Part shown: one piece after another, positions 16,666 to 54,662 of the stretch
Layout: each line of letters begins with the position of its first letter
How positions within the stretch are numbered: position 1 is the first letter of the stretch
Source: Thalassobaculaceae bacterium
GTDB taxonomy: Bacteria > Pseudomonadota > Alphaproteobacteria > Thalassobaculales > Thalassobaculaceae
Direction of reading: 5' to 3'
Assembly (NCBI GenBank): GCA_965228875.1
Contig: OZ245843.1
Location: 788,616 to 852,615 of the forward strand
DNA: 64,000 bases
Position numbers and translations under genes: made by a program
Notes under the pieces: model-generated
The model's database searches: none
Told to the model about the DNA's origin: nothing
Seen by the model: the letters and a program-made list of their open reading frames with translations, nothing else

Positions 16666-17714
16666 ACGCCCCTCCGCCGAGCGACGATCAGGGCGACGAA
16701 GACGGGCACGCCGACCAGGGCGGTGACGATTCCGACCGGCAGGATGACACCGGGGAGCAGTGCCTTCGACGCGATGGATGCCAGCGACAGCATCAGCGCA
16801 CCGGTGATCGCCGCACCGGGCAGCAGGAACCGGTGATCCTCGCCCAGCAGCATGCGGGCGATATGCGGGCCGACCAGTCCGACGAAACCGATGGTGCCGA
16901 CGAAGGCGACGGCGGCGGCGGTCAGGAGGCTGCTGCGGAGGATTGCGACCAGCCGCAGTCGATGTACGGCGAGCCCGGCGCTGGCGGCCTGATCCTCTCC
17001 GCCGCGCAGCAGGGTCATGGCCCAGGCGCTGCGCAGGGTGAACGGACAGACCAGCGCGAAGACGACGGCGACCAGAGCAACCTTCTCCCACGTCGCCCGG
17101 CCGAGGCTTCCCATCATCCAGAAAACCGTCTCCTGTACCGTCTCCGCGTCGGCGACGAACTGCAGAAGAGAGATCAGGGCCGTGCAGGCGAAGACCAGGG
17201 CGATGCCGAAAAGGATGATCGTTTCGGTCCGCGAACCGAACAGCTGCGACATGCCGAGGATGGCAAGGCCGGCGGCGACAGCCAGCGCGAAGGCGGCGAT
17301 CGGGAGGATCGCCGGACCGAAGACGCCGTCCAGGCGGAACACGATCGCGGCGACGGCGCCGAGGGCGGCCGCCCACGAGATCCCGAGCGTGTAGGGGCTG
17401 GCGAGCGGGTTGTTCAACGCCGTCTGGGTCTCGGCGCCGGCGACGCCGAGGCTGGCACCGACGGCGACGGCCATCAGGGCATAGGGCAGGCGCACGGTCC
17501 ACAGGATGACGGACTCGCCCGGGCCGAGCGACGCGGGGTCGACGAGGCCGCCGACCACGGCGGCGATGCTGAGCGCAGACGGGCCGGTCACGATGTCGGC
17601 CACCACCGACAGGCACAGCGCGACGGCGAGGCCGGTCAGAATGGCGGCGCGGCGCCGGGCGATGCGTCCGTAGCCCGCCGCCAGCGGCAGGTCTCTCACG
17701 TTCGCTGCGGTCAT
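16662..17714 (-). CDS. FecCD-family ABC permease
   Basis: 'NPLASPYTLG' and 'GTIGFVGLVGPHIAR' motifs. Confidence 0.92.
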   Translation of the reverse strand: MTAANVRDLPLAAGYGRIARRRAAILTGLAVALCLSVVADIVTGPSALSIAAVVGGLVDPASLGPGESVILWTVRLPYALMAVAVGASLGVAGAETQTALNNPLASPYTLGISWAAALGAVAAIVFRLDGVFGPAILPIAAFALAVAAGLAILGMSQLFGSRTETIILFGIALVFACTALISLLQFVADAETVQETVFWMMGSLGRATWEKVALVAVVFALVCPFTLRSAWAMTLLRGGEDQAASAGLAVHRLRLVAILRSSLLTAAAVAFVGTIGFVGLVGPHIARMLLGEDHRFLLPGAAITGALMLSLASIASKALLPGVILPVGIVTALVGVPVFVALIVARRRGV

Positions 17715-18847: not shown

Positions 18848-18849
18848 GG

Positions 18850-20982
18850 TCAGAACTTCGCCGTCAGCCGGAAGGTCGCGGTCAGGGGTTCGCCGTAGAA
18901 GGTTCCGCGTTCAACGGTGTTCACCCGCTGAATGTACTTGCGGTCCAGAACGTTGTGGACGGCGACGCTGGCGTCCACGTTCTCGGTGATCGCATAGCCC
19001 ACCAGCGCGTTGACGATCGCATAGCCCGGTGCCTCGATCGGCACGCCGCTCGCCTGAGACTTGAAACCGCTCACCGCCTGGACGCCGGCGCCGAGATAGG
19101 CGTCCTGCAGCGGACCGTCGAGGAAGGTGTACTTGGCGAACCCGACCAGGCTGTGCTCCGGCGTCGGATCGGTGTCGAGGTCGGTCGTCACGTAGCTGTA
19201 GCCCGCGATCAGGTCGACACCCGGGTAGGGGCTGCCGCTGACGTTGACCTCGAAGCCCTTGGTCTCCGCCTCGCCGGAGGCGGTGAAGGAGCCGACATTG
19301 GCCGTGTCGTCTTCGGCCCGGTTCTCGTCCTCAAGCCAGAATACCGCCGTCTGGGCGTTCAGTGCGCCGTCCAGGAAGCTGGCCTTCGCGCCGACCTCGA
19401 CCTGTCGGCCGATCACCGGGTCGAGCTGCGAGCCGTCGGCGGCCTGCTCGCTCTGGGGCTGGAAGATCTCCGAGTAGCTGGAATAGGCGGTCAGCTGCGA
19501 CGTCAGGTCGTAGCTCAGGCCGACCATCGGCACGAAACGGTCGGCGGAAACCTCGGTCGTGATGCCGCGGCCGGTGTCCTCGGTCTCGCTGTCGTAGGTC
19601 GCGAGACGGGCGCCGAAGCTGAGATTCAGGCCGTCGAGAACCTGGAGGCGGGCGTAGCCGTAGCCGCCGTACTCCGTGGATTCTGTTTCTGTGTTCAGCC
19701 GGAAACCGGGGCCTACACCTGGAAAGGTGACGTCGGGTTCGGCGATCGAACCGGGGTCGAAGGTGTAGATGTTGTGCGTGCCGGCCGAGAAGTCGAAGTT
19801 CTGCTTCATGTCCTGCTCGGACAGCCGCGCGTCGGCGCCGATGGTGAATTCGCTGCTGCGGCCCATGAAGGTGAACGGCGAGGTCAGGTTGGCGTCGACG
19901 TAAGAGGTCAGTTCGTCGAACTTGCGGGCGAAGGTGAACATCGAGAAATCGCCCGTGTCCCGATCCACGCCGCTCAGGCCGAGCGCCGTCTTGATGTTGA
20001 CGTCACGGCCGTAGGTCCGGGCGGTGACCTTGAGGATACCCCCATAGTCGAACCCGTGCTCGGCCTCGACGAAGCCCTCGGCGGTGTCGATCTCCCGGGT
20101 GTTCCAGTCGGCCCCGATGAAGGTGCTCCGGTCGAGGTCGATCAGCGTGCCGTCGGTGAAGGTCGGCAGGCCGCTCGTCCCGGTGGTGTCCTGGGTCTCG
20201 GCGATGCCGCCGATGGAAAGGGTGGTGGTTTCGGTGATATCGGCCTCGAGGGTTCCGTATCCGCCTCCCTTGTCCTGGTTCTGAACGTCGACGAAGGAGT
20301 CGCGGGTGAGGCCATACCCGATCACCCGTCCCCGCAGCGAACCGGACTCGTTCAGCGGTCCGCCGACATCCCCCTCGGCCCGGTAGGCGTCGTAGGAACC
20401 GGCCGATGCGCCGAAGTTGGCGGCCAGGCGGTCGCCGGGTCGCTTGCGTACCAGGTTAAGGGTGCCGACCGGCTCGCCGGAGCCCTGGAACACGCCGGAG
20501 GGGCCCGACAGGAACTCGATGCGGTCGAAGAACACGAGGTCGGGCGCGGTGCCGTAGAGGCTGAGGAAGGGTCTTGGCGCCCCGTCGATGTTGTAGGTGA
20601 ACACCTCGTGACCGCGTGAGTACAGCGACCCGTCGTAGAGGTTGCCGGTAGCCGTCGTCACGTTCGGGATCAGATAACCCGCTTCCTCAAGCGTGTTGGC
20701 GTTGGCGTCGTCGAGCCTCTGGCGGGTGATGACGGTGACGCTCTGCGGCACTTTGCGGATGTCGACCGGATGCTTGTAGCCGACCGTGGCCCGTTCTGTG
20801 GTGTAGGAACCGGTGTCTTCCGTCACCACGCCCGGATCGCCTTCGACGACGATCGGCGAGAGAACCATCGGCTGGCTGTCGGCCTGCTGAGCGGCGGCGG
20901 CACCCGCCATCGCGGCATAGGCGGTGCCGGCAAGCAGCATCGCGGTCAGCGCCTTGCGGCTGTCTGTCGGTAGTGCGGACAT
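18850..20982 (-). CDS. TonB-dependent siderophore receptor (FhuE/FpvA-like)
   Basis: 'VPQSVTVITRQRLDD', 'FDRIEFLSGPSG..GTLNLVRKRP', 'HNVLDRKY..YGEPLT..TAKF'. Confidence 0.92.
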   Translation of the reverse strand: MSALPTDSRKALTAMLLAGTAYAAMAGAAAAQQADSQPMVLSPIVVEGDPGVVTEDTGSYTTERATVGYKHPVDIRKVPQSVTVITRQRLDDANANTLEEAGYLIPNVTTATGNLYDGSLYSRGHEVFTYNIDGAPRPFLSLYGTAPDLVFFDRIEFLSGPSGVFQGSGEPVGTLNLVRKRPGDRLAANFGASAGSYDAYRAEGDVGGPLNESGSLRGRVIGYGLTRDSFVDVQNQDKGGGYGTLEADITETTTLSIGGIAETQDTTGTSGLPTFTDGTLIDLDRSTFIGADWNTREIDTAEGFVEAEHGFDYGGILKVTARTYGRDVNIKTALGLSGVDRDTGDFSMFTFARKFDELTSYVDANLTSPFTFMGRSSEFTIGADARLSEQDMKQNFDFSAGTHNIYTFDPGSIAEPDVTFPGVGPGFRLNTETESTEYGGYGYARLQVLDGLNLSFGARLATYDSETEDTGRGITTEVSADRFVPMVGLSYDLTSQLTAYSSYSEIFQPQSEQAADGSQLDPVIGRQVEVGAKASFLDGALNAQTAVFWLEDENRAEDDTANVGSFTASGEAETKGFEVNVSGSPYPGVDLIAGYSYVTTDLDTDPTPEHSLVGFAKYTFLDGPLQDAYLGAGVQAVSGFKSQASGVPIEAPGYAIVNALVGYAITENVDASVAVHNVLDRKYIQRVNTVERGTFYGEPLTATFRLTAKF

Positions 20983-21048
20983 TCCTGTTTCCCCCGGCTC
21001 GCCCCGACATCCGTCGGGGACTCACGATCATCGCGTCCTTTGTATGAG

Positions 21049-38100: not shown

Positions 38101-38267
38101 TCTTGGTGCCCACGCGATGTCGTGGGTGAAAAGGGAAGCCGGTGAAGAACCGGCGCTGCCCCCGCAACTGTGAGCGGCGAGTTCGGGCCTGATCGTGCCA
38201 CTGGCATCTCGATGCCGGGAAGGCGGGCCGGAGCGCTGGAGCCGCGAGCCAGGAGACCTGCCAGGAC
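38098..38267 (+). ncRNA. Cobalamin (AdoCbl) riboswitch
   Basis: AAAAGGGAAGCCGGTG, CTGCCCCCGCAACTGT, GCCACTG..CCGGGAAGG, and B12 box AGCCAGGAGACCTGCC. Confidence 0.95.
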
Positions 38268-38385
38268 GAGAACGAAACCGGGCGGAGGGTCCGGAGATAT
38301 CGTCTCAGCCGCGGCCCGGATGTCGTGGCGGATCGTGTCTCCGATCTTTCCGGCCCACTGGGCATACCGAGCAGGAGACCCGTCG

Positions 38386-38607
38386 ATGGCCGTGACCGTT
38401 TATTCCAAGCCCGCTTGCGTGCAGTGCACCGCCACCACCCGCGCGCTCGCCGCCCGGGGGATCGAGTTCGATCTGGTCGACCTGACCGAGGACCTCGAGG
38501 CCATGGAGAGGGTGACCGCGTTGGGGTACCGCCAGGCCCCGGTGGTCATGGTCGGCGACGATCACTGGGCCGGGTTCCGCCCCGACAAGATCAGCGCGCT
38601 CGGCTGA
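38386..38607 (+). CDS. nrdH: Glutaredoxin-like NrdH
   Basis: '[24 protein letters not shown]'. RBS AGGAG. Confidence 0.95.
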
Positions 38608-39000
38608 GGAAGCCGTGGGCGGGCTCGTCTACTTCTCCTCGCGGTCGGGCAATACGGACCGCTTCGTCGCCCGTCTGGGGCTGGCGGCGGAGCGGATCCC
38701 CATCGCGGCGGAGGATGAGATGCCGGTCGCGCGTGCACCGTTCGTGCTGATTTCGCCGACCTATTCCGACGGGCAGGGGCGCGGGGCCGTCCACAAACAG
38801 GTGATCCGGTTCCTGAACGACCCGGTTTCCCGCCGCAATCTCCGTGGCGTCGTCGCTGCGGGCAACAGGAATTTCGGGGTGCATTTCGCGCTCGCGGGCG
38901 ACGTGGTCGCGCAGAAATGCGGCGTACCGCTGCTCTATCGGTTCGAGCTGGCGGGAACCGACATCGACGTCGAGCGTGTCAGAGAAGGATTGGACAGGTT

Positions 39001-42166
<3,166 letters not shown>

Positions 42167-42167
<1 letters not shown>

Positions 42168-42577
42168 TGGCGAGAGACACGCTCGAGATCGTCCGGGAAT
42201 GGCATGAGGCCTTCGACGTTCCGGTGGCCGATGGTCCGACGCTTCCCGAGGCGCGCGCCGGGATGCGGCTGGCGATCCTGGAGGAGGAGATGGCGGAACT
42301 GCGCCAGGCGGTCGAGGCGGGCGATCTGGTCGAAGTGCTCGACGCGCTCTGCGACATTCAGTACGTGCTCGACGGCACGTTCCTGGAGTTCGGCATGCAC
42401 CGCATCAAGGCGGCGGCGATGGCCGAGGTCCATGCCTCGAACTTGTCCAAGCTCGGCACCGATGGCCGCCCGGTGCTTCGCGGCGACGGCAAGGTCCTGA
42501 AAGGACCGAACTTCATCCGTCCTTCCCTGGCGCGCCTGCTTTGTAGAGCAGATCACGATCAGATGGATTCGATCTGA
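42167..42577 (+). CDS. MazG-like/PRA-PH nucleoside triphosphate pyrophosphohydrolase
   Basis: 'LEEEMAEL..EVLDALCDIQYV..EVHASNLSK..DGKVLKGPN'. TGATG coupling to nrdF. Confidence 0.85.
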
Positions 42578-42707
42578 AGCGATCGCACTCCAGGCATCGG
42601 ACGCCGGAGGCGCGGAGGACCTGCCGTGGGGGACGCCGCTGTCTGGCGTGGGCGGACACCCCGGCTCTTCTCCCTCTCAACGTTCCGCCATGGCCGAGAG
42701 GCGAATT

Positions 42708-45700
42708 CTACTGCGCCGCGGCGAGCGGGAAGTCGCGCAGGCTCTTGCCGCCAGACTTGAACTCGGCTGTCTGCGTATATCCCTCCGACTTCGCGAGCCC
42801 CTCGACACGCGCCGGCACCCTCGAGCCGAGGTCGAACGCGGTGATCGTCTGACCGGACGCGCGCCGGCTGTCCAACTCACTGAGAATGGCGTGGGCGAAC
42901 ACGCCGTTCCGACCGTTGTATCCGTCCAGGGCCTCCTGGGTTTCGGACGACGCGGCCAGAATGAAGTAGCCGGTATCGTTGCCAATCTCGCCCGGGGTGT
43001 CGGTCGGCAGGGCTCCCGAGTGGCAGGTATCGAGAAAAACCATCGTGTTGGCCCCCAACAGACTGCCCAGCAATCCGACCAGCCGGTCCTGATCGATGGC
43101 CTGATCGGGAACCGCGTGGATCCCCTCAACGTTGTGACTGATGAAGTGGTACACGCCGCCATCAACAATGACGCCATGCCCGGCTATGTAGACAACCACA
43201 GTGTCGACCGGCTTGATCCGCTCTGCCACGCTGTCGAAGGCGCTCTGAATGCCCTCCGCCGTCGCTTCCTCGTCGAAGCGCGAGACCACCTGAACATCCT
43301 TGTAGAGCGGGGCACGGGACTGGCTGATCCGCTGCGATACCGAATCCGCATCGCGGCGGGCGAACGAAAGGTCCTGAATGTCGCCCTTGTAGATGTCGAT
43401 CCCCACCGCGATCACATAGAGCGTCGGTTCCGGCGGCGCTTCCGGCTCGGGTACCTTGAGGGTCAGCTCATGGGACTTGCCGAACACGCCGGACGTCGAA
43501 TAGGCCCTGACGTAAAGCTTGTTGAGGCCGGGCGACACGGTGACGACCTTTTCGACGGTCTGAACCTCGACGGCTTCGGTGTCCGCCGGCTTCTTGCGCG
43601 AGAGACCGCGGAACGCCTGGCCGGTTGTCCGGTCGTTCAGAAAAACGTCATACCGGGTCACGGGTTCGGATCCCGGCGTGATCTCGAAGACCAGACGGAC
43701 CCTGTCATGGCCTTCCGGCAGTAGCGACACGGCCGCGGGTGGTGCATCGGCGGACTGTTTTCGAGAAAGACCTCGACGCAACTGGTTGGCGGGATAGCAG
43801 GCGGTGTCGTCGCCCGTATCGGCTACGGCACAGAACCGGACAAGGGTGACGCTCGGCGCCAAGGCGATCGTGTTCTCGACTTCCGGGGCCGCATCCGGAC
43901 GCGCGACGTTGGCCGGTTGGACCAGCCCCACCCGATATCGCATCAGCTCGATATCGTAGAATCGCTTGTAGAGCTGGGAGAAGTCGATCCACCGGGCCAC
44001 CTGCTTGCGGCCACGGTTCAGGACATACCCCGCCAATTCCTGGCCGCCGCCGACCGAATGGGTGAAGTGGCCGTCCGGCGACCAAAGAATCCATCTTCGG
44101 CCGTCCGCGTGCACGAACAGAGACGCGATCTCCTCCAGTTCCTGCCCGGCGACGAGCGAGTACCATCGGATCGTACCGTCCCGGTGGGCGACCACCAGGC
44201 GTTTGCCGTCGGGGGTCGCGACGACGGCGGACGCCGCCGAGAGAACGACCGCCTCCCGCTGTGGCGTGCCGTCCGCCGCATACATCGAGAGTGAATAGTC
44301 GCTGCCGACGACAAAACCGTCATCCGTGAGTTCCGTCGCGCTTCTCGCGATGTCGCGGCGCGAGGACAGGCGGACCAGGCGGCCATCCAGTGTCATCTCC
44401 GGGCTGTCGCGCCAGCCCTCGAGCCTGGAGGGAGGAGCCGGCCTGGCGAAGCCCGGCGCCGGCTCCGGCGCGGCCTTCAGGGAAAGTGTCTTCGCGTCAA
44501 ACCGAAGGGTGCGATCGCGCCCTTCCGCCCGGAAGGAGAAGTCGACGACCGTTCCGTCTTCCGATGTCCTGAACACGCTCTCATACAGGCGTCGGAAGTC
44601 GGCCTTCGGGCTGGATATGCGGAAGAGAAGGCGGCCACTCTCGCCGGCGACGCGGCCCCATGCCGGATCGCCCGTCGCGAACAGGATGTCTCCCTCAGGC
44701 GTCGTCTCCAGGCGGGTGACCGCATCGCGGCTTACCGGTATGTCCGTGAAATCGTCGGGACGGTCGACGCTCCGCCAGCGCCGAACCACGATGTCGCGAT
44801 TGCGGTCGACGACGCCGCCGGACGCCCAGAGTTCGTCGCCCTTCGCGCCGACACGCCAGGCGACCGCGCTGAGGAAGAGTGTCGCCGTGCCCGGCGCATT
44901 CCCCGACAGCGACGTGGCGCGGCGCATGGACCCGACGTCAAGAATGTCCACCCTTGGCCGGTTGGCGTATGCGACCGCGAGTTGGGCACCGTTTGGAGAA
45001 AAACGGACCTGCGCCGGCCGGCCGTCGGGCGCGTTCCATTCCTTCACCGTCGAGAAGTCGTTGTCGTAGAGGCGAACGACCCCGTTTTCGGCCACGGCCG
45101 CCAGACGTCCATCTTGCGCGAATTCGACCCAGTTCGTCGCCGCGCCTAGATCGTCGGAGAACACGCGCTTGAGACGTTGGTCGATGACGGTGACGCCGCT
45201 TGGGTTGCGGGTATGGGCGGACGCGAGGAGGGTCGCCTTGCCATCGGCCGACGGTCGATGGGTATCGATGGCGTTGACGATACCGCCGGTCGCGACCCGG
45301 TCGATCGTCTCAAGGCCGGAGGAGAAGCGCACGAAGTAGAGCAGGTTCTGGCGCCGTCCCTGAGCGTCGGCGAAATAGCGACCACCGGTGAATCCGGAAG
45401 TGATGATATGGCTCTCGCCCGGCCAGTACTCGACGGTGTTGAGGACCCCTTCCTCGTCGGGGCCGACCGGTGTCCGGACGGTCTCCAGCAGCTCGCCCGT
45501 CGCCGCGTCCCAGAGACGCATGGTTTTGTCATCGGAGACGGTGGCAACGACGCCACCGTCCGCACGCACCTTGATGTCGCGGATCGTCGCCGTGTGGTTC
45601 CCCGTCTCGATCTGCAGTATCGGCGATGTCGGCAGCCCGTCGGCCCGCGCCGGATGGGAGAGAACGCCGGCGAGCATCGCGGCTGCGGCCAGGACGAGAG

Positions 45701-45767
45701 CGCAGACTCGAAGGTTCTTCCGGGGGGCGCCGTCCGGCCGGCGGCGAAATTTCGGCCCATACGACAT
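42708..45767 (-). CDS. Exported WD40 beta-propeller protein with C-terminal caspase-like (C14) domain
   Basis: Signal peptide ending ARA. WD repeats ('ATVSDDKTMRLWD', 'HRDGTIRWY'). C14 motifs 'VIAVGID', 'YIAGHG', 'FLDTCHSG', 'NGVFAHA'. Confidence 0.85.
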   Translation of the reverse strand: MSYGPKFRRRPDGAPRKNLRVCALVLAAAAMLAGVLSHPARADGLPTSPILQIETGNHTATIRDIKVRADGGVVATVSDDKTMRLWDAATGELLETVRTPVGPDEEGVLNTVEYWPGESHIITSGFTGGRYFADAQGRRQNLLYFVRFSSGLETIDRVATGGIVNAIDTHRPSADGKATLLASAHTRNPSGVTVIDQRLKRVFSDDLGAATNWVEFAQDGRLAAVAENGVVRLYDNDFSTVKEWNAPDGRPAQVRFSPNGAQLAVAYANRPRVDILDVGSMRRATSLSGNAPGTATLFLSAVAWRVGAKGDELWASGGVVDRNRDIVVRRWRSVDRPDDFTDIPVSRDAVTRLETTPEGDILFATGDPAWGRVAGESGRLLFRISSPKADFRRLYESVFRTSEDGTVVDFSFRAEGRDRTLRFDAKTLSLKAAPEPAPGFARPAPPSRLEGWRDSPEMTLDGRLVRLSSRRDIARSATELTDDGFVVGSDYSLSMYAADGTPQREAVVLSAASAVVATPDGKRLVVAHRDGTIRWYSLVAGQELEEIASLFVHADGRRWILWSPDGHFTHSVGGGQELAGYVLNRGRKQVARWIDFSQLYKRFYDIELMRYRVGLVQPANVARPDAAPEVENTIALAPSVTLVRFCAVADTGDDTACYPANQLRRGLSRKQSADAPPAAVSLLPEGHDRVRLVFEITPGSEPVTRYDVFLNDRTTGQAFRGLSRKKPADTEAVEVQTVEKVVTVSPGLNKLYVRAYSTSGVFGKSHELTLKVPEPEAPPEPTLYVIAVGIDIYKGDIQDLSFARRDADSVSQRISQSRAPLYKDVQVVSRFDEEATAEGIQSAFDSVAERIKPVDTVVVYIAGHGVIVDGGVYHFISHNVEGIHAVPDQAIDQDRLVGLLGSLLGANTMVFLDTCHSGALPTDTPGEIGNDTGYFILAASSETQEALDGYNGRNGVFAHAILSELDSRRASGQTITAFDLGSRVPARVEGLAKSEGYTQTAEFKSGGKSLRDFPLAAAQ

Positions 45768-45785
45768 CGTATCCTCCGCAGGTGG

Positions 45786-45812
45786 CCGCCCGACCGATCG
45801 CCGGTCGGGCGG
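45786..45812. repeat. Intra-operon 11-bp inverted repeat
   Basis: CCGCCCGACCG-ATCGC-CGGTCGGGCGG between the lipoprotein and WD40-caspase genes, with no U-tract. Confidence 0.6.
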
Positions 45813-45834
45813 ATGTTCGGACCGCTACCGTGGT

Positions 45835-46935
45835 TCAGCCCAGTGTGAACTGATCGCTGTCCGCCTCGGCCGTCGCCGTGGCTTCGTACACGCGATCCCG
45901 CTTCTCGACGTTGGCGAGGCTCACGTCCTGCAGGTCCTCGACCTTGTCGCGGTCGCCGTCAGGCAGGACGATCGGCTTGAGATCCTCGTCCTCGATCGGC
46001 TTTTCGGCGGGCGCGTCGGCGATGCGGGCATTCGCCTTCGGCGTCGGGCTGGATGCGATGGTGGCATCGACCGATCCCAGGAGGAACTCGGCGATGTAGG
46101 CCTCGCCGCCGCTCGGATTGGCGATCTTGAACCAGTCGCCTTCCTGACCGATGACCCGCACGACGGTGCCGGCGCTGAGTGTGCCGACTTTGGCGTGGTC
46201 CGTTCCCGGACCGCCACGCAGGTTCGACCCCTGGAGGACCTTCATCCTCGTGCCGGAAGTGGCTTCCGACGACGTCGCGGAGCGGGTCTTCGTGGGCTCG
46301 TCGACGACCAGCTGTCGCCCGCCATTGTCGGCTGCAATCTGGTTGTAGACGGCGGCATAGCCGTCGGTGCGCTTGCCGATATTCTTGGCGATCTTGTCGA
46401 GCTGTTCGACGTCCTCATCATACCGCTGCTTCACCAGGGTCATGCGTTCCTGGGCGACGCCGCGTGTGATCCGGCCGGCCTTGAGATCCGCCCGGATGGC
46501 GGCGGCCTCTCCGGTCCGACAGTCCTTCAACGTGTCGAAACGGGTCAGAAGAAGATCGATGCGCTCGTTCTCCTCGCGCACGTTCTTGATCGCGGCGTCC
46601 GTAAGCTGGACCGGATCGGAATACTTTTCCTGCAGATCGTACAGCAGAGTGCCCGCAAGCGCCGCGGCGGCTCCGATCAGGCCGCCCTTGAGGGCGTTCT
46701 TGCCGGTCGCTGCGGCAATCAGTGCTCCACCGGCGGCACCGATCAGAACGTTGCGCAGCACCTCGGTCTCGAACGTGTTTCCCGTGCTGTCGAGTGCCGC
46801 CCGCTGGGTGTAACACACGTCCGTCTTGTCGCTGAGGTACCCGCCCGGAAGCACACTTCCGATATTGGTCGTCTGACACGCGGCAAGCACGATCACCATG
46901 CTCAGCGCCGTGCCTTTCTTCAGAGTTCTCTTCAT
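45835..46935 (-). CDS. Lipoprotein with glycine-zipper, coiled-coil and bacterial SH3 (SH3b) domain
   Basis: Lipobox LAAC. Glycine zipper 'IGAAGGALIAAATG..GGLIGAAAALAG'. SH3b 'NLRGGPGTDHAKVGTL..GDWFKI..AYI'. Confidence 0.75.
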   Translation of the reverse strand: MKRTLKKGTALSMVIVLAACQTTNIGSVLPGGYLSDKTDVCYTQRAALDSTGNTFETEVLRNVLIGAAGGALIAAATGKNALKGGLIGAAAALAGTLLYDLQEKYSDPVQLTDAAIKNVREENERIDLLLTRFDTLKDCRTGEAAAIRADLKAGRITRGVAQERMTLVKQRYDEDVEQLDKIAKNIGKRTDGYAAVYNQIAADNGGRQLVVDEPTKTRSATSSEATSGTRMKVLQGSNLRGGPGTDHAKVGTLSAGTVVRVIGQEGDWFKIANPSGGEAYIAEFLLGSVDATIASSPTPKANARIADAPAEKPIEDEDLKPIVLPDGDRDKVEDLQDVSLANVEKRDRVYEATATAEADSDQFTLG

Positions 46936-46999
46936 GATCCTGTCCCCTCTACGCTCCCGTTAGGGAATTGAATGGTTTCGCCACTGTTCTACCACCCGA

Positions 47000-48304
47000 T
47001 CAGTTCGGGTCGGAGATGAAGCCCACGAGCAACGGCGTCGGAACTTTCGCGTGATGCAACGCGATGTGAAACGGTCGGTCGACAATGAACTCGAACGTGT
47101 CGGTGTTGATGGAACGGAGGCTGAGGATTGCCGTCGCCGCGGATGCCGTTGTCCCCCGCTCATCGACAGCCAGATGGCTGCGCTGAACGATCTGGCTGAC
47201 CGCTGGTGGGAACGGGCCCCGTATTTCCTTGATGACGTCAGGATTGCCGAGCATTCCCGCGAGGCCGATCTCGGCCAGGATGTCCGTAAGGTCCATGTCG
47301 CCGCTCGCCGAGAACCGGGGGAGGGCGATGGTCCCCGAGGAGGACGGCATGGTTTCCTCGAAGTCGACCGTGAACAGCCATGACACAGCCTCGGCCCATG
47401 CGGCGTCCTGGTCGGCACCCTCGTTGGGAAGATAGATGAGGAGCGATAGCTCGGTGTCCTCGTAGAACAGGCGCGCCAGGTGGCCGTGCTCGGCAACGGC
47501 ATAGGGATAGCGTCCGCTCCGACGCATCATCGGGACGGTTTTCGATGCCCCGTCCTCGCCCGTGAACGACTGTTCCGTCGTCTCCGCCTTGGCGAACGGG
47601 CGCAGCCACGCGCCCTTGAAGTAGAACGCATTGGTTAGGAGCATCGTCGTCTGACCGGTGAGACGGTCGAGGATTGCCGGGATCGCCCCTTGTGTCTTGT
47701 CAGAGACCCAGTCGTTCACCTGTTTGAGCGCCTCCGGGGTTCCGAAATCGATGCTGGAGACCTCCCCGCGGTATTCCGATATCAGTCGCGTCGAGTACTC
47801 CGGCGAGATCGAGGAGGATTCCGGAAGCCAGAGAGCGTTGGCGAGAGTCAATCGACCCTTCTCGGTGACGGCATTGTCGTCCATCGCCGCGAGCGCTTCG
47901 TACGAGTGGCCGATGACCTCACCGATGTCGACCCGCCAGGTGTCGGACGCGGCCTCGCCGATCAGGGCAAGCGCGAGTTCGACACTGATCGGGGAGAGCA
48001 CGACGTTCCCGCTCCGGCTCTTCATCAGTGCGGAGTAGGCCCGCAGCCCGAGCGTTGCAGAGGGAGGCGCGACGACAACCGGCTTTTTGGTTTCAACGCT
48101 GAACTTGGAGCTGTCGTCGGTCGCCACCTGGGTGGGTGACCCGGTCGCCGTCTTGGCGGCCGCGATGGCCCGGGGCGCGTCCGGTCCGCTCGACAGGTCC
48201 GCAGACCAAGCCGCCGATGCGGCGACGACCATGACGGCGGCAGAAACCGATCCCAACAGCGCCCGGGTCACGGAAGCCGCGAAACCGGAAAGTGTTTCTG
48301 TCAT
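47000..48304 (-). CDS. Exported serpin (serine protease inhibitor family)
   Basis: 'NVVLSPISV', 'VNDWVSDKTQG', 'NAFYFKGAW', 'VPMM', 'LPRF', hinge 'VDERGTTASAAT', signature 'FIVDRPF'. Signal peptide present. Confidence 0.92.
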   Translation of the reverse strand: MTETLSGFAASVTRALLGSVSAAVMVVAASAAWSADLSSGPDAPRAIAAAKTATGSPTQVATDDSSKFSVETKKPVVVAPPSATLGLRAYSALMKSRSGNVVLSPISVELALALIGEAASDTWRVDIGEVIGHSYEALAAMDDNAVTEKGRLTLANALWLPESSSISPEYSTRLISEYRGEVSSIDFGTPEALKQVNDWVSDKTQGAIPAILDRLTGQTTMLLTNAFYFKGAWLRPFAKAETTEQSFTGEDGASKTVPMMRRSGRYPYAVAEHGHLARLFYEDTELSLLIYLPNEGADQDAAWAEAVSWLFTVDFEETMPSSSGTIALPRFSASGDMDLTDILAEIGLAGMLGNPDVIKEIRGPFPPAVSQIVQRSHLAVDERGTTASAATAILSLRSINTDTFEFIVDRPFHIALHHAKVPTPLLVGFISDPN

Positions 48305-48362
48305 TGGCGCATCCTCGCTCTTAGCGGTTCCATCCGGGTTTCGCGGCGGCCCATAGTCAGCC

Positions 48363-50699
48363 TCACTCCACAATCCGGTAGTTCGTCTGACCCATCGACC
48401 AACGGCCGCGCCGCACGGTCGCACCGGCGCCGACTGTGGGTTTGCGCAGCTCCGAGGCCAGCTTGTCGACGAAGGCCTTCGGTCCGGCAATCTGCAGTAC
48501 GTTGTCGAGAAGCTGCTGATCCAGTGGAGCTTCCGAGGCGACCGCCACCAACAGGTACTCGCCGGCGGGCGGCTGTACCTGAAACCACTCGTATCCCGTC
48601 TCCACCACGTCGGGCACCACCACCGGCCGGCCGCCCCGGATCTCGTACTCTTCGAGGTAGGCGTCGGGGTTGGGCAGAATCCGGCTGACACTCCCCGAGG
48701 GGGCGACCTCGAATAGGGTGAAGTGGCCCCCGATCTCGGAATCGACGCGGATACGAATGCGTGAGCCGACACGACGCTCCGTGCCCGGCTCCACCGTGAT
48801 ATCCAGCCGCGCGCCGTTCACCGGATTGAGGGCACCGCCCACACCGCTCCCGGCGTCGCCGACCGGTGCGCCGGTAAGGACCTCGGCCGTCATGATCGAC
48901 GCCGGCCCTTCAAGGCTCGGCGTCAGCCCGAGGACGCAGTAATCCGGGTTGCGTTTGCAGTACGCCTCGGACTCCGCCGTGACATGGTCGAGCAGCTCCG
49001 CATGGGTGACCTTGCCGTCCTGGTTTCCGTCCGCCTTCAGATCGGCGATGCCGGCGATGAACCGGCTCGTGAAGACGCCACGAGGTTCCGGCGACTCCAG
49101 GTCGACCAGCGCCACCTGGCTCGGGCTGACCGCTGTCCACGTCGAGACGTTGCCGTCCAGCGCCTCGAAGGCCCTGGACAGCTGCGCCTGGCGCACGGAG
49201 CCGCGGGGCAGCGGCAGTTTGGCCTTGGAGAAGCCGCCGGAAGGCTGACGTTTGAACCGGGTTGACGGTCCGAAGGACAGCGACCGCGTCATCGTTCCCG
49301 AATGACAGCTGTCCACGACGATGGTGATCTTGCGATCCGGCATGCGTTTCAGAATGTCGCGGATCTCGTCGTCGCGAATGATGTTGTCGACCGTGCCGTC
49401 GGCTTTCGGCACGGCGTCATGGGGAATGAGCACCTCATCCAGACCATCCTCCTCGTCGCCGTTCTGGTCGGGCACATAGAACCCGTGTCCGGAATACGAG
49501 AAGAACACCCGACCACCGGGTTTCGAGCCCTGGACGAGCCAAGATTGCATGGCGTCTAGAATGCGGTCGCGGGTCGCGTCCGCGTCCTTGAGCACCTTGA
49601 TCTGTTCGGGCCTGAACCCGAAGGATCCGGTCAGCAGGCCGACCATGGCATCGGCATCGGCACCCGATCCGACCAGGTCGTTGGCTTCGTCCCGGTAGTC
49701 GTCGATACCGATGACGAGCGCCCGGTCGGTGTCCACCGGCGCGGGCGGCGGCGGTGGCGGCGCCGCGGCGTAGCGCGGGAGTTTCACGTACTGCTCGATC
49801 CAGTCGACGTACCGCGACACCCTGGTGAAGATTGCTGGCGACAGCCCGCAGCTCACCTCCTCGGTGCCGGCGCCCCAACTGACCACGCCGATCTGATATG
49901 GCGCGCCATCCGGACCGGGCGCGAACAGCGGCCCCCCCGAGTCTCCCTGGCAGGTGGTGCGCTGACCGCCCCAGTCTCCCGCGCAGATCTGGTTCTCCGT
50001 GACCAAGGAGGACAGGAAGTCCGAAAATCTTCGCGTGCACTCCCGCCTGGACACAATCGGCAGGTCGGCCTGCAGCAGGTACTCCGAGACGACATTCTCG
50101 CGCCCGGACGTCTTGCCCCAGCCGATCGCGGTGGCGCTCAGGCCGGGGCGCTCGACCGCCTCGACGATGCCGCCGGCCGCCAGTTTCACAACCGGCAGGT
50201 CGATCGGACGTTTCAGCTCGATCAACGCAATGTCGTCGAGAATCTTGGGTTTGGGCTTGGTCGTCGTGGCCCGGATATATCCCGAATGGGCTATGATCCG
50301 CTTCGCAAACCCCAGCTTTCCATAGATCTGCGGTTCGCCGGGCCCAAGGAGAGCCGGCATGCGCGTATGGCCGGCCTGCACGACCACGACCGTATTTCCG
50401 TCATTCGGGTCGGTCACCCGCCCGTTGTCGTCGACGACGCAGTGCGCTGCGGTGAGGATCCAGCTTCGATCGATGAGAGTGCCACCGCAGGCGGTTCCCG
50501 CGGCGAACACGTACACCTGAAACGGCCATGCGCCGGGCCGCGCCTGAACGCCGCCGACAATCCGCGAACCACCGGCTTTCACAGTAGGGCGCTCGGTCGG
50601 GGTAACGAACGTGTCGAAGGTTTGAGCGCCCGCGTCGACGGCGGACACCAGCAGACCACTGGCAAGCAAGACAATCGTGAGCAGGCCTGACCTCAGCAC
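48363..50699 (-). CDS. Exported S1 (chymotrypsin-fold) serine protease - caspase-like C14 - DUF4384-like fusion
   Basis: 'R|IVGG', 'CGGTLI..TAAHC', 'DDIAL', 'CQGDSGGP', poly-Pro linker, then 'ALVIGID', 'YSGHG', 'VDSCHSG', and a C-terminal beta domain. GTG start overlaps the upstream stop. Confidence 0.88.
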   Translation of the reverse strand: MLRSGLLTIVLLASGLLVSAVDAGAQTFDTFVTPTERPTVKAGGSRIVGGVQARPGAWPFQVYVFAAGTACGGTLIDRSWILTAAHCVVDDNGRVTDPNDGNTVVVVQAGHTRMPALLGPGEPQIYGKLGFAKRIIAHSGYIRATTTKPKPKILDDIALIELKRPIDLPVVKLAAGGIVEAVERPGLSATAIGWGKTSGRENVVSEYLLQADLPIVSRRECTRRFSDFLSSLVTENQICAGDWGGQRTTCQGDSGGPLFAPGPDGAPYQIGVVSWGAGTEEVSCGLSPAIFTRVSRYVDWIEQYVKLPRYAAAPPPPPPAPVDTDRALVIGIDDYRDEANDLVGSGADADAMVGLLTGSFGFRPEQIKVLKDADATRDRILDAMQSWLVQGSKPGGRVFFSYSGHGFYVPDQNGDEEDGLDEVLIPHDAVPKADGTVDNIIRDDEIRDILKRMPDRKITIVVDSCHSGTMTRSLSFGPSTRFKRQPSGGFSKAKLPLPRGSVRQAQLSRAFEALDGNVSTWTAVSPSQVALVDLESPEPRGVFTSRFIAGIADLKADGNQDGKVTHAELLDHVTAESEAYCKRNPDYCVLGLTPSLEGPASIMTAEVLTGAPVGDAGSGVGGALNPVNGARLDITVEPGTERRVGSRIRIRVDSEIGGHFTLFEVAPSGSVSRILPNPDAYLEEYEIRGGRPVVVPDVVETGYEWFQVQPPAGEYLLVAVASEAPLDQQLLDNVLQIAGPKAFVDKLASELRKPTVGAGATVRRGRWSMGQTNYRIVE

Positions 50700-52339
50700 G
50701 CCACCGTCTCCCCGTTGCAGCTGTAGAAGGACAGCAGTCCCAACCGGTGCGGGACGCCGCTCAGCCATTTTCTGAAAGCCTGAGGCACGTCCAGAGGCCG
50801 GACCTGTCCGTCCATCGCGCTCAGTTCCGCAACAAGCTGCGCCGGGTGGGTCTCGGTTGTCAGCGCCACGAGCAGATCGGCTCCGAAAGGTCCCGAGACG
50901 TTTATGCCGGCGAGTTCGAAAGGGCTCTCGGGGTCGCGTGGACCGGCCTCTCCCGAGCTCAGGGGATAGAGAAACTGGACGGTCCCGTCGTTCGCCAGAT
51001 TGACCAGGGTGAGGTAGGGATACCCGAGGTCGCCGACCTCGATCGTCACCACCTCGCCCTCGCGATAGATGGATTTGCCCGGACTGACAGAGATGTCCAG
51101 GGAATGGGTCTCCCCCATCGCCGACAACCGTGAGCGCGCCCGGAACTTGTCGACCACTCCCTGGAGCGCGTCGGCCGGAATCTCCTGGGCGACGACGGTG
51201 TCGATGCCGCTGACCACCTCTCGCTTTTCGGCGTCCCAGACGATGTCCGGGGTGTCGTGCACGTCCACGATCCGGGCGCCCTCGAGGCCGGGCGGCGTGG
51301 TGCCGGGAACGCCCAGGACCGCGACCCGGATATTGCGGTCGGGCGGTGGAGCGACGACCGCCGGTCGACCATGGGCATAGAGCGTGCGTTCCGCGCCGTC
51401 ATCCGCCGAGACGATATTCGGGATCTGCGCCCCCTGCGTCTCGAAGTTGATGTTGCGCAGGACGTACCGTTTCATCTCCGCAAGCTGGATACGGCCGTCG
51501 CCGTCGGTGTCGGCCGCCCCCCGCAAACCGCGCGAGAAGAAGTAGCTCATGGCTCCCCGTGGGACCGCCTGACCGTCCGTGTCGGGCAAGGGGATTTCGG
51601 GAACGAGTTGATCGTCGAGAACGGCACCGAAGGAGATCAGGTTGCTTGGAAACGCCTCCGCCGTCTCCGCCGCCGCGGGGGCATCGAGGCCGGCGAAGAG
51701 ATCGTCTGTCTCTGTGCTTGAGAGCAGATCGCCCTCGATCTTGACGCCTGAAAACCGGTACCGGGGCCTTACCCGCCGATCGACACTCCTGAACGTGGTT
51801 CCGGAGTGGCACGCATCGATCACCAGGACCACCTGCACGTCCCGCTCGGCGGCCTTGCGCACGAAAGCATCGATCTCGTCGTCGAGTATGAACTCGCTGC
51901 GGCCAGCGTCCGCCTTGCCGAAGGCGTGCAGCGGCAGAAACTCGTCGTAGCCATCCTCCTCCGCCGATGAGGCCGGGGCTTCGGCCTGCATCCCGTGACC
52001 CGCATAGGTGAGGAAGACGGTATCACCCGGTCCCGACCGTTCGAGGGCGCCGTTCCAGGCTGCGATGACGGCATCGCGGCGGGCCTCGCCATCCAGCAGT
52101 ACCGTCACATCGGTCATCCCGATGGCTCGGAACGTCGTCTCGAGATCGCGGGCGTCGTTCACGGCGCCACCGAGGTCGGAGAGGATGCCGTCCGGATCGA
52201 GATAGTCGTCGATGCCGACGACGACCGCGCGCCATTGCGTCTCGACGGACGCGGCGACGGTGGCGGTCCACGCGAGCAGAAGACAGGCCGCAATCCCCAG
52301 GACAGCTGCGGTGGCTTGACTAGGACCCGTTGCACGCAT
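50693..52339 (-). CDS. Exported caspase-like (C14, meta/orthocaspase) protease with DUF4384-like C-terminus
   Basis: Signal peptide. 'AVVVGID', 'LGGAVNDA', 'YAGHG', 'IDACHSG'. C-terminal 'YLTLVNLANDGTVQFLYP..GPFGAD'. Confidence 0.87.
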   Translation of the reverse strand: MRATGPSQATAAVLGIAACLLLAWTATVAASVETQWRAVVVGIDDYLDPDGILSDLGGAVNDARDLETTFRAIGMTDVTVLLDGEARRDAVIAAWNGALERSGPGDTVFLTYAGHGMQAEAPASSAEEDGYDEFLPLHAFGKADAGRSEFILDDEIDAFVRKAAERDVQVVLVIDACHSGTTFRSVDRRVRPRYRFSGVKIEGDLLSSTETDDLFAGLDAPAAAETAEAFPSNLISFGAVLDDQLVPEIPLPDTDGQAVPRGAMSYFFSRGLRGAADTDGDGRIQLAEMKRYVLRNINFETQGAQIPNIVSADDGAERTLYAHGRPAVVAPPPDRNIRVAVLGVPGTTPPGLEGARIVDVHDTPDIVWDAEKREVVSGIDTVVAQEIPADALQGVVDKFRARSRLSAMGETHSLDISVSPGKSIYREGEVVTIEVGDLGYPYLTLVNLANDGTVQFLYPLSSGEAGPRDPESPFELAGINVSGPFGADLLVALTTETHPAQLVAELSAMDGQVRPLDVPQAFRKWLSGVPHRLGLLSFYSCNGETVAC

Positions 52340-53327
52340 TGTCGTACCGCCCGCTCTCCTGGTTGCCTTGTCCGTAGTAGACCTCGACGCGCCGATTGAT
52401 CCGCCAACGCTCCTCCTGTGTGAACCGGTCGGGATTGTCGATGTTCACCGGAATGCGTTCGCCGCACCAAAGCGCGCGGATCGTTCCGGCGAATCCGTTC
52501 TGCTGGAGGTAGGTCCGGATCCGGGTGGCCCGGCGGCCGGACAGGTCGAGGTTGTAGGCGTCGTCGCCGCGTTCGTCGGTGTGCCCGATGATCGTGATCT
52601 CGTTCGGGCTCTCGCGCCGCAGGATCGGGAGCAACCGCTCCGCCGTCACGCGACCCTGCTGGTCAAACTCGTCGGACCCGGTGACGAACGTGATCTGTGG
52701 CGTCTTCTTCGGTACCCCGATCCCCCGGACGCTTGGCGCGAAATAGGCGGCGGTGCCGCCTCCGCGCGTCGTCGGCTCGACCGGGATCTCGGTGAGAACC
52801 AGCGCCTCTGATGCCGCAGCATGAACCGCGTGGATGGTCTCGGCCGAGGGCGCCTTGGCGGTGTAGCCGGTATGCTCCATAAGGTTGAGCGCCTGGAAAT
52901 AGTGTCGCGTTGCGGCGTCGTAGCGTTTCAGGTCCATCGCGAGCGAGCCGAGCTGAGCGCGCATTTCCCAGTGATCGGCATAGGGGAGGTACTCTTCGAC
53001 TTCGCGATAGAGGGCGTCGATTTCGGCTCCCCGCTGGCGCTCGACGCCAGCGATCCGGGCTACGAGGAGACCGAGGTGAGAGCGCGCCGCGATGCGATTC
53101 TTCGGGGGACAGAACACATCGATATCAGTGATCAGCCCGCGGGCGGCGGCACTGTCGTGGGCTTTCAGGCTCTGCGCGAAACTGGTGATGAGGGAGCGAC
53201 AGTTGTTCGCGTCGCCGGCGGTATCGCCTGCTGCCGGACCCGCCAATGCGATCCCAAATACCGCGGCGATCCCGAGGCCGGGTCCGATTAGCCGTTGCCG
53301 CATACTTACGCCTGATCTCCGCGTCAT
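52320..53327 (-). CDS. Exported OmpA-family peptidoglycan-binding protein with helical/TPR-like N-terminus
   Basis: Signal peptide. TPR-like 'LGSLAMDLKRYDAATRHYFQAL'. OmpA C-terminal motifs 'IIGHTDERG..YNLDLSGRRA..NRRVE'. Alternative ATG at 53303. Confidence 0.85.
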   Translation of the reverse strand: MTRRSGVSMRQRLIGPGLGIAAVFGIALAGPAAGDTAGDANNCRSLITSFAQSLKAHDSAAARGLITDIDVFCPPKNRIAARSHLGLLVARIAGVERQRGAEIDALYREVEEYLPYADHWEMRAQLGSLAMDLKRYDAATRHYFQALNLMEHTGYTAKAPSAETIHAVHAAASEALVLTEIPVEPTTRGGGTAAYFAPSVRGIGVPKKTPQITFVTGSDEFDQQGRVTAERLLPILRRESPNEITIIGHTDERGDDAYNLDLSGRRATRIRTYLQQNGFAGTIRALWCGERIPVNIDNPDRFTQEERWRINRRVEVYYGQGNQESGRYDNACNGS

Positions 53328-53627
53328 CTCGCTTCGCCCCACCTTCGCCTCGCGTCCGCCACGCGTCGCGTACGGCCTAGCCTTGCCTCGAATTCATCAT
53401 CCGTCCAGGATGGAAATCAACCAAAACCCGAATCCTTGCGCCCTTGCGCTCCCGCCCATTGCAGGGCGCCGCCGGATTTGGTGGATGGACACTGTCGAGC
53501 CGGTCCTTGACGCAGGCGCAGCGATCCGGCGGGGCACCGTGCGACGTGCCGCGGACTCGACCGGGAGCGCGGTGGGGCCGAAAAGAGCTGACTTCCGGGG
53601 ACCGGCGGCGTGTCGGGCAGAGCCGGA

Positions 53628-54662
53628 TCAGCGTGCGACCGCGTGGCGCGGTACGACCGTCTCGGCTGCATCGGCAGGCGGTTCCATCTTCTCCGCGTGG
53701 TGACAGGCGACGGTGTGATCGGTATCGCCGATGGTCCGCAGGGCGGGGATGGCCCGGGCGCAGTCCGCGGTCGCCATCGGGCAGCGGGTGTGGAAGACGC
53801 AGCCCGTGGGTGGGTTCAGGGGGCTCGGCGGGTCGCCTTCGAGCAGGGCGCCACGGCGGCGGGCCCGGGGATCGAGCCGGGGGGCGGCGGCTATCAGCGC
53901 GCGCGTATAGGGGTGTCGCGGCGCCGAGAACACCTGGGCGGCGGGGCCGGTCTCGACCATGCGGCCGAGGTACATGACCACGACCCGGTCGCAGATGTGT
54001 CGCACGATCCCGAGATCGTGGGAGATGAACAGGTAGGTCAGGCGGTGGGCTTCCTGCAGGTCGAGCAGCAGGTTCACCACCTGGGCTTGGATCGACACGT
54101 CGAGGGCGGCAACGGCCTCGTCGCAGACGATGAAGCTCGGCGACACCGCCAGAGCACGGGCAATCACCGCGCGCTGCAGCTGGCCGCCGGACATCTGGTG
54201 TGGATAACGCGCCAGCATGTGGCGCTCGAGTCCGACGGACTGGAGCAGTTCATCCATTCTCTGTGGGCGGTCCGCAGCCTCGCCGATCTCGTGTACATCG
54301 AGGATCTCGCGGATCTGCGTGCCGATCGTCAGGCGCGGATTCAGGGCACCGAACGGGTTCTGGAAAATCATCTGCATCTGCTGACGCAACTGACGCCATT
54401 CGGTGCTGCCGCGCTCGGCGGAGACCGTCCGGCCGCGGAACCGGACCGTACCTCCGCTCGGGGCGAGTAGGCCGAGCACGAGCTTGCCGATCGTCGACTT
54501 GCCACAGCCGCTCTCGCCGACAAGGCCGAGGGTTTCCCCTTCGCGGACCTGGAAGGAGACGTCCTGGGCGGCCGTCACAATCCGCTTGGCGCCGAGAAAG
54601 GGGATCGACCGGCCGACCGGAAAACGCCGCGTGAGTTTGTGTACATCGACCAGGACTGTCAT
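53628..54662 (-). CDS. Oligopeptide/dipeptide-family ABC ATP-binding protein (OppF-like)
   Basis: GESGCGKS, MSGGQLQR, 'GCVFHTRCP'. Confidence 0.92.
   Translation of the reverse strand: MTVLVDVHKLTRRFPVGRSIPFLGAKRIVTAAQDVSFQVREGETLGLVGESGCGKSTIGKLVLGLLAPSGGTVRFRGRTVSAERGSTEWRQLRQQMQMIFQNPFGALNPRLTIGTQIREILDVHEIGEAADRPQRMDELLQSVGLERHMLARYPHQMSGGQLQRAVIARALAVSPSFIVCDEAVAALDVSIQAQVVNLLLDLQEAHRLTYLFISHDLGIVRHICDRVVVMYLGRMVETGPAAQVFSAPRHPYTRALIAAAPRLDPRARRRGALLEGDPPSPLNPPTGCVFHTRCPMATADCARAIPALRTIGDTDHTVACHHAEKMEPPADAAETVVPRHAVAR

Follow-up and report, generated by a model that had tools for sequence, protein, structure and literature searches.

The DNA analysed here (the window) is a stretch of 64,000 nucleotides from a Thalassobaculaceae bacterium (assembly GCA_965228875.1, contig OZ245843.1, positions 788,616 to 852,615). 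Its minus strand carries, at 42708-53342, a cluster of six open reading frames (ORFs), g1 to g6, whose products bring together caspase-like (C14) domains, a chymotrypsin-fold (S1) domain, a serpin and an OmpA-like domain (Table 1). The six ORFs share one orientation and are separated by overlaps or by gaps of no more than 67 nt, a spacing which is operon-like, in agreement with the six co-oriented and tightly spaced genes of a preliminary description made from the sequence alone. Its domain order was recovered with Pfam for OmpA, C14, S1+C14+DUF4384, serpin, SH3b and WD40+C14, whereas tetratricopeptide repeats (TPR) in g1 and a DUF4384 domain in g2 were not. Either ATG 53327 or GTG 53342, which are in frame with each other, is the probable start of g1; an alternative GTG start of g3 at 50699 gives a 778-residue form (public P0001), and the ATG start of g4 at 48304 is preceded by a GAGGA motif. 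The overlap is 20 nt between g1 and g2 and, depending on the start of g3, 7 or 76 nt between g2 and g3, and the gaps measure 58 nt (g3/g4, with the 48304 start), 64 nt (g4/g5) and 67 nt (g5/g6).

Table 1. Features of the six-gene cluster (positions are those of the window; a slash marks a predicted or, in g4, a possible scissile bond)
Feature	Position	Strand	Description	Basis
g1	52320-53342	(-)	predicted exported; 7-helix N-domain and Pal/OmpA-like peptidoglycan-binding C-domain	Pfam OmpA 1.3e-12
g2	50693-52339	(-)	predicted exported C14 (metacaspase-like) protease, EF-hand-like loop, DUF4384-like C-domain	Pfam Peptidase_C14 4.7e-17
g3	48363-50768	(-)	signal peptide, propeptide of ~20 residues, S1A, Pro-rich linker, C14, DUF4384 beta-sandwich	Pfam Trypsin 2.8e-44, C14 3.7e-21, DUF4384 3.9e-11
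g3, predicted zymogen activation bond	50559..50564	(-)	Arg69/Ile70 (R/IVGG)	motif alignment
g4	47000-48304	(-)	predicted exported, inhibitory-type serpin	Pfam Serpin 2.8e-69
g4, hinge and reactive-centre loop	47111..47161	(-)	E-R-G-T-T-A-S-A-A-T-A-I-L-S-L-R/S	serpin alignment
g5	45835-46935	(-)	predicted lipoprotein; Gly-zipper and distantly TagQ-like N-domain, SH3b	Pfam SH3_3 4.2e-13
g6	42708-45767	(-)	predicted exported WD40 beta-propeller with C-terminal C14	Pfam WD40 6.3e-11, C14 3.9e-11
Intergenic region 5' of g1	53343..53627	(-)	285 nt, presumed promoter region	sequence inspected

We conclude from sequence comparison that g1-g6 form a conserved unit and not a chance neighbourhood. A search of metagenome contigs with g5 returned one locus, L118, in which all six genes keep their order and orientation, with amino-acid identities of 58, 56, 55, 49, 59 and 60% for g1 to g6, respectively. 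Its flanks (1-3068 and 14332-21025 of that locus) differ wholly from those in the window, encoding an nSTAND1 NTPase, a patatin-like lipase/phospholipase, a RyR/TrkA_N protein and Fic, a setting that resembles a conflict island. A core of four genes (OmpA, C14, S1-C14-DUF4384 and serpin) was found in seven further cassettes, from four Rhizobium species, one alphaproteobacterial metagenome-assembled genome and the loci L108 and L109. It is the gene order retained by L118 in other surroundings, together with this recurrent core, that argues against chance. The earlier view of the cluster as a conserved unit therefore stands for all six genes in L118 and for the four-gene core in the seven cassettes, with g5 and g6 confined to a narrow clade.

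The link between serpin and protease was followed through 83 loci scanned with profiles built here, made up of 80 found by alignment of the fusion (the unbiased set) plus L108, L109 and L118. S1 and C14 occupy one frame in eight of these loci, and in all eight an OmpA gene lies upstream and the next gene downstream is a serpin; within the unbiased set, the same arrangement is seen in 5/5 fusion loci. Only two of the other 75 loci contain a serpin (L021 from Aureimonas, and L035), both with S1-DUF4384 and OmpA, so that every serpin-bearing locus among the 83 (10/10) carries S1-(C14)-DUF4384 genes. Of 401 genomes sampled evenly from the class, nine have a serpin above the Pfam cut-off and three have the fusion (two genera), with the serpin adjoining the fusion in all three. 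Rhizobium plasmid records matched g3 in 90 cases and the serpin in 86, the two lying ~460 bp or less apart in the seven records compared. On a Rhizobium leguminosarum plasmid, RefSeq lists in order a DUF4384 protein, a caspase family protein, a trypsin-like serine protease, a serpin family protein and a Ser/Thr kinase, and its gene names for the cassette are generic only. Co-occurrence of serpin, C14 and S1, for which a neighbourhood search had been proposed, thus recurs across genomes. The S1+C14+DUF4384 architecture itself is common, with 1514 proteins at E ≤0.001 among 8000 candidates scored and all three Pfam families in 116 of the 120 matches listed for g3; a fusion as widespread as this cannot be unique to the present genome.

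Alternatively, the six genes could be no more than unrelated exported-protein genes that came to lie side by side without a joint function. In favour of this, a sigma-70 consensus scan of 42000-54000 found 0 sites, and the terminator scan found 4 terminator-like sites versus 5.7 expected, none of them clear, although scans with such an outcome are uninformative. No RNA data set was listed as containing the cluster; a run tentatively labelled RNA (X20) yielded a few low-depth contig pieces of 70-465 nt over g1, g2, g3, g4 and g6, from which no conclusion is drawn. However, such a reading would have to account for a gene order kept at 49-60% identity in other flanks, for the tie between the serpin and S1-(C14)-DUF4384 genes across the loci scanned, and for genes which overlap or nearly touch, and we regard it as extremely improbable.

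The S1 domain of g3 has the features of an S1A zymogen. In an alignment of 23 S1-C14-DUF4384 proteins, all 23 begin with a signal peptide followed by a propeptide of 10-25 residues, and all 23 place a basic residue (R in 18, K in 5) right before the motif [IVT][IVA][GN]G, as do 9/9 cassettes. A bond of the R/IVGG type is the classical activation site of chymotrypsin-fold zymogens. The catalytic triad (H86, D156, S254) is invariant in the alignment, as is C465 of the C14 domain, and the triad is present in 9/9 cassettes; six Cys of the S1 domain show no or almost no variation, GDSGGP (Asp194) is kept in the S1 family, and the closest solved S1 relatives of g3 are animal-type S1A proteases. We consider it quite likely, from the conservation of this site, that g3 is activated as a zymogen by cleavage after Arg or Lys. 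Its specificity once active is another matter, as residue 189 of the pocket is Thr in g3 instead of the trypsin-like Asp, which is found in 17 of the 23 aligned proteins and in 8/9 cassettes, L118 included; five closer relatives of g3 have Ser, Gly or Ala. Given Thr189, g3 is classed as an S1A protease whose trypsin-like specificity is not demonstrable. The same genome has, ~35 kb upstream of the window (C1 ~752450-757400), two adjacent trypsin-like genes followed by a gene for a BTAD/TPR regulator; the S1 match in one of the two contains a TGA.

All three C14 domains carry PF00656 above cut-off and retain the catalytic dyad motifs, YAGHG/DACHSG in g2, YSGHG/DSCHSG in g3 and IAGHG/DTCHSG in g6, so that the dyads, like the S1 triad, are as intact as the preliminary description had them. 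The closest solved relatives of the g3 domain are type I metacaspases, Yca1 (4f6o) and 7qp0 (E 1e-20), and the alignment includes, on the far side of the catalytic His, the acidic sequence DGDEEDGxDE, as in a p20 domain of metacaspase type. Metacaspases and orthocaspases are described as cleaving after Arg/Lys (PMC2064784; PMC6426788), and by analogy we infer the same preference for the cassette C14 domains. Past the catalytic Cys, the families of g2 (residues 277-288) and g3 (580-591) both keep an EF-hand-like loop, DxNxDGxxxxxE, which hints at control by Ca2+; the Pfam EF-hand_5 match in g2 (0.0038) is under the cut-off. Another C14-domain gene of this genome (an 845-residue ORF at C1 ~4432650-4435190) lies between a VgrG-like gene and VipA/VipB-like sheath genes of a type VI secretion system.

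Individual C14 copies have decayed in a complementary manner. In four Rhizobium cassettes (L015, L017, L025 and L026) the catalytic His of the fused C14 is replaced by Gln, and the g2 orthologues keep both His and Cys. In L108 (G287, 5109-6623) and L109 (G124, 4971-6464) it is g2 that is without both dyad residues, with its C-domain kept and the fused C14 intact. At least one intact C14 is found in 9/9 cassettes, and because the losses are complementary, one live C14 plus a live S1 look like the selected minimum. The retention of decayed copies along with their DUF4384-like domains suggests that these have a structural or regulatory role. We take the complementary decay as the best indirect support for a functional partnership of C14 and S1, whichever of the two may cleave the other. 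That a C14 domain is the activator of the S1 zymogen is plausible, though in our judgement somewhat doubtful.

The product of g4, the sole serpin of its genome, is matched by PF00079 over profile positions 4-370 of 370. It matches 137 serpins in the PDB at E ≤1e-20, conserpin, PAI-1 and alpha-1-antitrypsin among them (best E 5e-36). Inhibitory serpins have a hinge with Glu at P17, Gly at P15, Thr at P14 and Ala-rich positions P12-P9. The g4 hinge, E-R-G-T-T-A-S-A-A-T-A, is of this inhibitory type, and the E-x-G-T-x-A-rich pattern is kept in the cassette serpins. Further along the loop, an Arg, with Ser, Ala or Thr as the next residue, stands at the same position in 11/11 cassette serpins (an alignment of ten plus L118). 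Both the inhibitory-type hinge and the conserved Arg fit the brake suggested earlier for the serpin, and we think it probable on these motifs that g4 inhibits a protease of the cassette. The loop Arg would fit a trypsin-like S1 and an Arg-specific C14 alike.

Export was judged with a heuristic of our own, which asks for a run of basic residues and, after it, a 12-residue window hydrophobic enough to reach a Kyte-Doolittle mean of ≥2.3. The N-termini of g1-g6 all fit this Sec-signal pattern, and lipoboxes are seen in g5 (LAAC, Cys20) and possibly g2 (IAAC), as expected from the signal peptide or lipobox formerly assigned to each product. Two cysteines of g1, Cys48 and Cys78, are invariant in 5/5 orthologues. 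An extracytoplasmic, oxidising location fits this Cys pair, the Cys of the S1 domain and the Pal-like fold of g1, and export of all six products is very likely by these signs. The presumed anchor, g1, was modelled with AlphaFold2 (AF2; predicted local distance difference test, pLDDT, 77) as an N-domain of seven helices and a C-domain which superimposes on Pal (4g4v) with Z 14.9 and a root-mean-square deviation (rmsd) of 2.3 over 110 residues. The Pal fold and PF00691 identify the latter as an OmpA-like peptidoglycan-binding domain, in which an N-x-x-L-S-x-R-R-A block is invariant in five orthologues. The helical N-domain gave weak matches only (NCBIfam Tgl, E 0.0038; TPR-like folds at Z 7.7-8.0, the noise range for helical models); no TPR was matched by Pfam, and the fold search with the g1 model produced no convincing match for this part.

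The element shared by g2 and g3 is the C-terminal DUF4384 domain. That of g3 belongs to the family by its PF14326 score, above the Pfam cut-off. The C-domain of g2 resembles it by BLASTP (E 0.001) and alignment only; Pfam made no DUF4384 call in g2, and the match to our own profile is circular since g2 is part of the alignment from which it was built. Relatives carry the domain also on the Rhizobium OmpA anchor, on S1-only proteins and as stand-alone proteins, from which we infer a shared assembly module. In an AF2 model of the g3 C-terminal region (mean pLDDT 75, good from residue 34), the domain is a beta-sandwich with two helices. Its best neighbours are the macroglobulin (MG) domains of C5, C4, C3, alpha-2-macroglobulin, CD109 and TEP1 (Z 9.2-10.3, rmsd 1.7-2.5 over ~90 residues), compared to Z ~8 for generic immunoglobulin (Ig)-like folds; in Foldseek the TM-scores of the model were low (≤0.39 by query length). 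A thioester-containing protein or alpha-2-macroglobulin was considered as well and rejected, as the six proteins contain no C[GLA]EQ motif and the MG-like sandwich is a single one, 1-2 Z units above Ig-like folds. The likeness to alpha-2-macroglobulin and complement C3/C4/C5 is thus one of the fold of the g3 DUF4384 model only, and serves as no more than a lead.

On balance, we are inclined to see in the cluster a Sec-exported, peptidoglycan-anchored zymogen/serpin proteolytic switch, situated either in the periplasm or on the inner side of the outer membrane. In such a switch g3 would be the central enzyme, made in inactive form with its S1 zymogen joined to a metacaspase-like C14, and a cut in the propeptide after the conserved Arg/Lys would free the IVGG N-terminus and render g3 active. 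Likely activators would be the Arg/Lys-specific C14 of g3 itself, of g2 or of g6, with self-activation as a possibility where the S1 domain has Asp189. The serpin g4 would serve as an irreversible brake on S1, C14 or both. The DUF4384 domains of g2 and g3 would probably tether the parts to the OmpA-like anchor g1, and g5 (a putative outer-membrane SH3b lipoprotein) and g6 (WD40+C14) may be clade-specific input or anchoring modules. Compared to the sensing and amplifying cascade of the preliminary description, whose roles for WD40 (sensor), the caspases (initiators) and S1 (amplifier) are hypothetical, what holds is the conserved unit, the look of exported proteins, the zymogen and the serpin type, and what has to be narrowed is the part given to g5 and g6, which are clade-specific.

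A number of observations weigh against the switch as outlined. With regard to activation, the S1 domains with Asp189 (17 of the 23 aligned) could self-activate without any C14, and the loss of the His from the fused C14 in Rhizobium means that activation in cis is not general. With regard to the brake, the loop Arg comes 16th when counted from P17, which in the canonical 17-residue register makes it P2; to be P1 it would need a loop shortened by one residue, and such short loops do occur in known serpins. Action of the serpin on S1 is least certain in this very genome, as the S1 pocket has Thr189, Gly216 and Ala226 and yet the serpin Arg is kept; with S1 lacking Asp189 in the window, the serpin is no less likely to target the C14 domains than S1. 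In the serpin tree the deep branches are unresolved, and cassette serpins do not form a supported clade versus four non-cassette serpins, leaving an ancient co-inheritance unsupported. Three loci (L016, L046 and L055) have C14 before S1, in reverse order, with no serpin match in the locus; they may represent a different architecture made from the same parts. A serpin or a full-length g3 was absent in the 40 relatives searched, 10 congeners included. Finally, PADLOC (PADLOC-DB 2.0) made no system-level call for the six proteins, and no system-specific model was matched. Its matches were generic: g2, g3 and g6 hit the caspase model, the OmpA domain of g1 hit MotB-type ZorB models, and g6 also hit HEAT-ARM weakly; g4 and g5 had no match.

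The Rhizobium cassettes open another route, in which regulated periplasmic proteolysis of a receptor reports the state of the envelope to the cytoplasm. Directly after the serpin they have a receptor-type Ser/Thr kinase gene (L026, 13623-16046; L115, 11665-14070), whose product has one transmembrane helix and an ectodomain of ~465 extracytoplasmic residues. In one proteobacterial kinase family, DUF4384 is listed as one of the domains at the C-terminus (10.1101/2025.01.12.632604), and some Csx30 proteins, substrates of a caspase-like protease, carry it too (10.1101/2022.08.17.504292). The N-domain of g5 points in the same direction, being distantly TagQ-like. For g5, only nine near-length homologues were found, whereas distant relatives of its N-domain are numerous. 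TagQ belongs, as an outer-membrane lipoprotein, to a kinase/FHA pathway that senses the envelope. As TagQ proper, g5 was rejected (NF041250, 19.7 bits versus a cut-off of 300, a distant resemblance only), and 7/9 sampled g5 relatives score 23-47 bits, again far under the 300-bit cut-off; the resemblance (Atlas lead score 0.83) is kept as a lead only. Besides these scores, the clusters of the window and L118 are without a kinase or other membrane-spanning signalling gene, and our own DUF4384 profile found no such domain in the Rhizobium kinase, which together make signalling to the cytoplasm by this route improbable. As to g6, its orthologues are found at 60-76% identity and WD40-C14 proteins of its type are widespread; in four Mesorhizobium loci one lies 5-6 kb from trypsin-like genes.

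On one side the cluster is flanked by class Ib ribonucleotide reductase genes and a MazG-like gene, and on the other by an oligopeptide ATP-binding cassette (ABC) transporter. The genes at 38170-42577 abut the cluster and encode a glutaredoxin-like NrdH, NrdI, the large subunit, a further ORF and the MazG-like protein; the last has no match in 10 congeners at E ≤1e-20. In two congeners (G001 and G005) synteny stops at the oppF orthologue, and no empty-site junction defining an insertion was seen. The cluster is accessory in this lineage. The remaining content of the window is iron uptake, Na+-NQR and central metabolism, with ordinary iron uptake at 8583-20982 (an extracytoplasmic function (ECF) sigma/FecR pair, two TonB-dependent receptors and two siderophore-type ABC uptake sets).

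The adjoining oligopeptide transporter would suit secreted proteases (g3, g2 and g6) which attack external proteins or other cells, as effectors or for feeding, with the serpin as immunity-type self-protection during export. The same could be said of the near-identical DNA of the organism in marine and aquatic metagenomes, of the location of cassettes in accessory regions and on plasmids, and of DUF4384, which could bind surfaces, adhesion and carbohydrate-binding domains being among its fold neighbours. However, the linkage to opp is not conserved, L118 and Rhizobium having other flanks. A peptidoglycan-binding anchor gene heads 8/8 cassettes, no conserved secretion-system genes lie alongside them, and the retained pseudo-proteases fit a regulatory assembly better than bulk digestion. 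An effector or feeding role is therefore quite unlikely in our view, and an anchored, serpin-restrained switch remains the reading we prefer.

The cassette is apparently uncharacterised. NCBIfam has no model for such a system, and no description of a system of this composition was found in the literature searched (main texts), in agreement, as far as PADLOC, NCBIfam and these searches reach, with the novelty suspected at the outset. Among the papers searched, those mentioning DUF4384 yielded no characterisation of the domain, those joining serpin, metacaspase, bacteria and operon yielded nothing relevant, and none of those pairing serpin with orthocaspase, among the matches listed, was on bacteria.

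Several known systems share parts of the design. In coagulation, complement and the arthropod CLIP/Toll pathways, extracytoplasmic chymotrypsin-fold zymogens are cut between Arg and Ile of Arg-Ile-Val-Gly-Gly and are restrained by serpins with a basic loop residue. The site of this type and the serpin with a basic loop residue are common to the cassette, and the closest solved S1 relatives of g3 are, as said, animal-type; in contrast to the cassette, the animal systems have neither C14 nor OmpA anchoring, and the cassette, with a single S1 zymogen seen in each cluster, gives no sign of an S1 cascade of several steps. In plants, metacaspase 9 (AtMC9) is regulated by the suicide inhibitor AtSerpin1 (PMC2064784), likewise a case of an Arg/Lys-specific C14 protease under serpin control. 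The plant genes are eukaryotic, unlinked and have no S1 partner, whereas in the cassette the serpin gene comes right after the S1-C14 fusion and export signals occur throughout.

Among prokaryotic systems, orthocaspases and metacaspases have the p20-type His/Cys dyad and frequently WD40 as a partner (PMC6426788; PMC3501461). A 2012 survey of prokaryotic metacaspases mentions 14 metacaspase operons with OmpA, and also helices at the N-terminus which may be signal peptides; its main text contains neither "trypsin" nor "serpin", and an S1-zymogen fusion with a linked serpin is not described there (PMC3501461). In Craspase (type III-E CRISPR; Csx29 protease, Csx30 substrate), a caspase-like protease is likewise linked to DUF4384, one group of Csx30 C-terminal domains being DUF4384, often fused to protease domains (10.1101/2022.08.17.504292). 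Craspase, however, is cytoplasmic and RNA-guided, and the cassette has no Cas genes and generic PADLOC matches only. Bacterial gasdermins are cytoplasmic and are accompanied by a caspase-like protease, in accessory regions or defence islands. The cassette differs from these in the export signals of its products, and here too the PADLOC models matched are only generic.

What the switch would respond to can be suggested tentatively. A role in envelope conflict or the response to envelope damage is conceivable, if on the unlikely side. Rather unlikely, too, is the more specific proposal of an extracytoplasmic zymogen cascade for envelope surveillance or immunity, built like the humoral cascades of animals. 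In such a cascade, MG-like DUF4384 domains would bring g2, g6 and the fused C14, as metacaspase-like initiators, to a peptidoglycan-bound platform; these initiators would turn the S1 zymogen into an executioner, with the serpin setting the threshold. Once fired, for instance when a phage, a predator or a hostile neighbour breaches the envelope, the cascade would sever envelope tethers or send a signal inward, the latter in Rhizobium via the linked receptor kinase.

To our knowledge, few of the abundant bacterial caspase homologues have a known job, and most bacterial serpins are without a known target. Bacterial serpins are also rare, as the nine carriers among 401 genomes of the class indicate. 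In the cassette, up to three metacaspase-like domains are genetically locked to an S1 zymogen and a serpin, all with predicted export signals. The cassette thereby offers a candidate partner for each of these orphans, and its occurrence in genetically tractable Rhizobium strains makes tests practical. Should the cascade proposal prove true, zymogen/serpin logic would not be limited to the extracellular fluids of eukaryotes, and a function would be defined for DUF4384.

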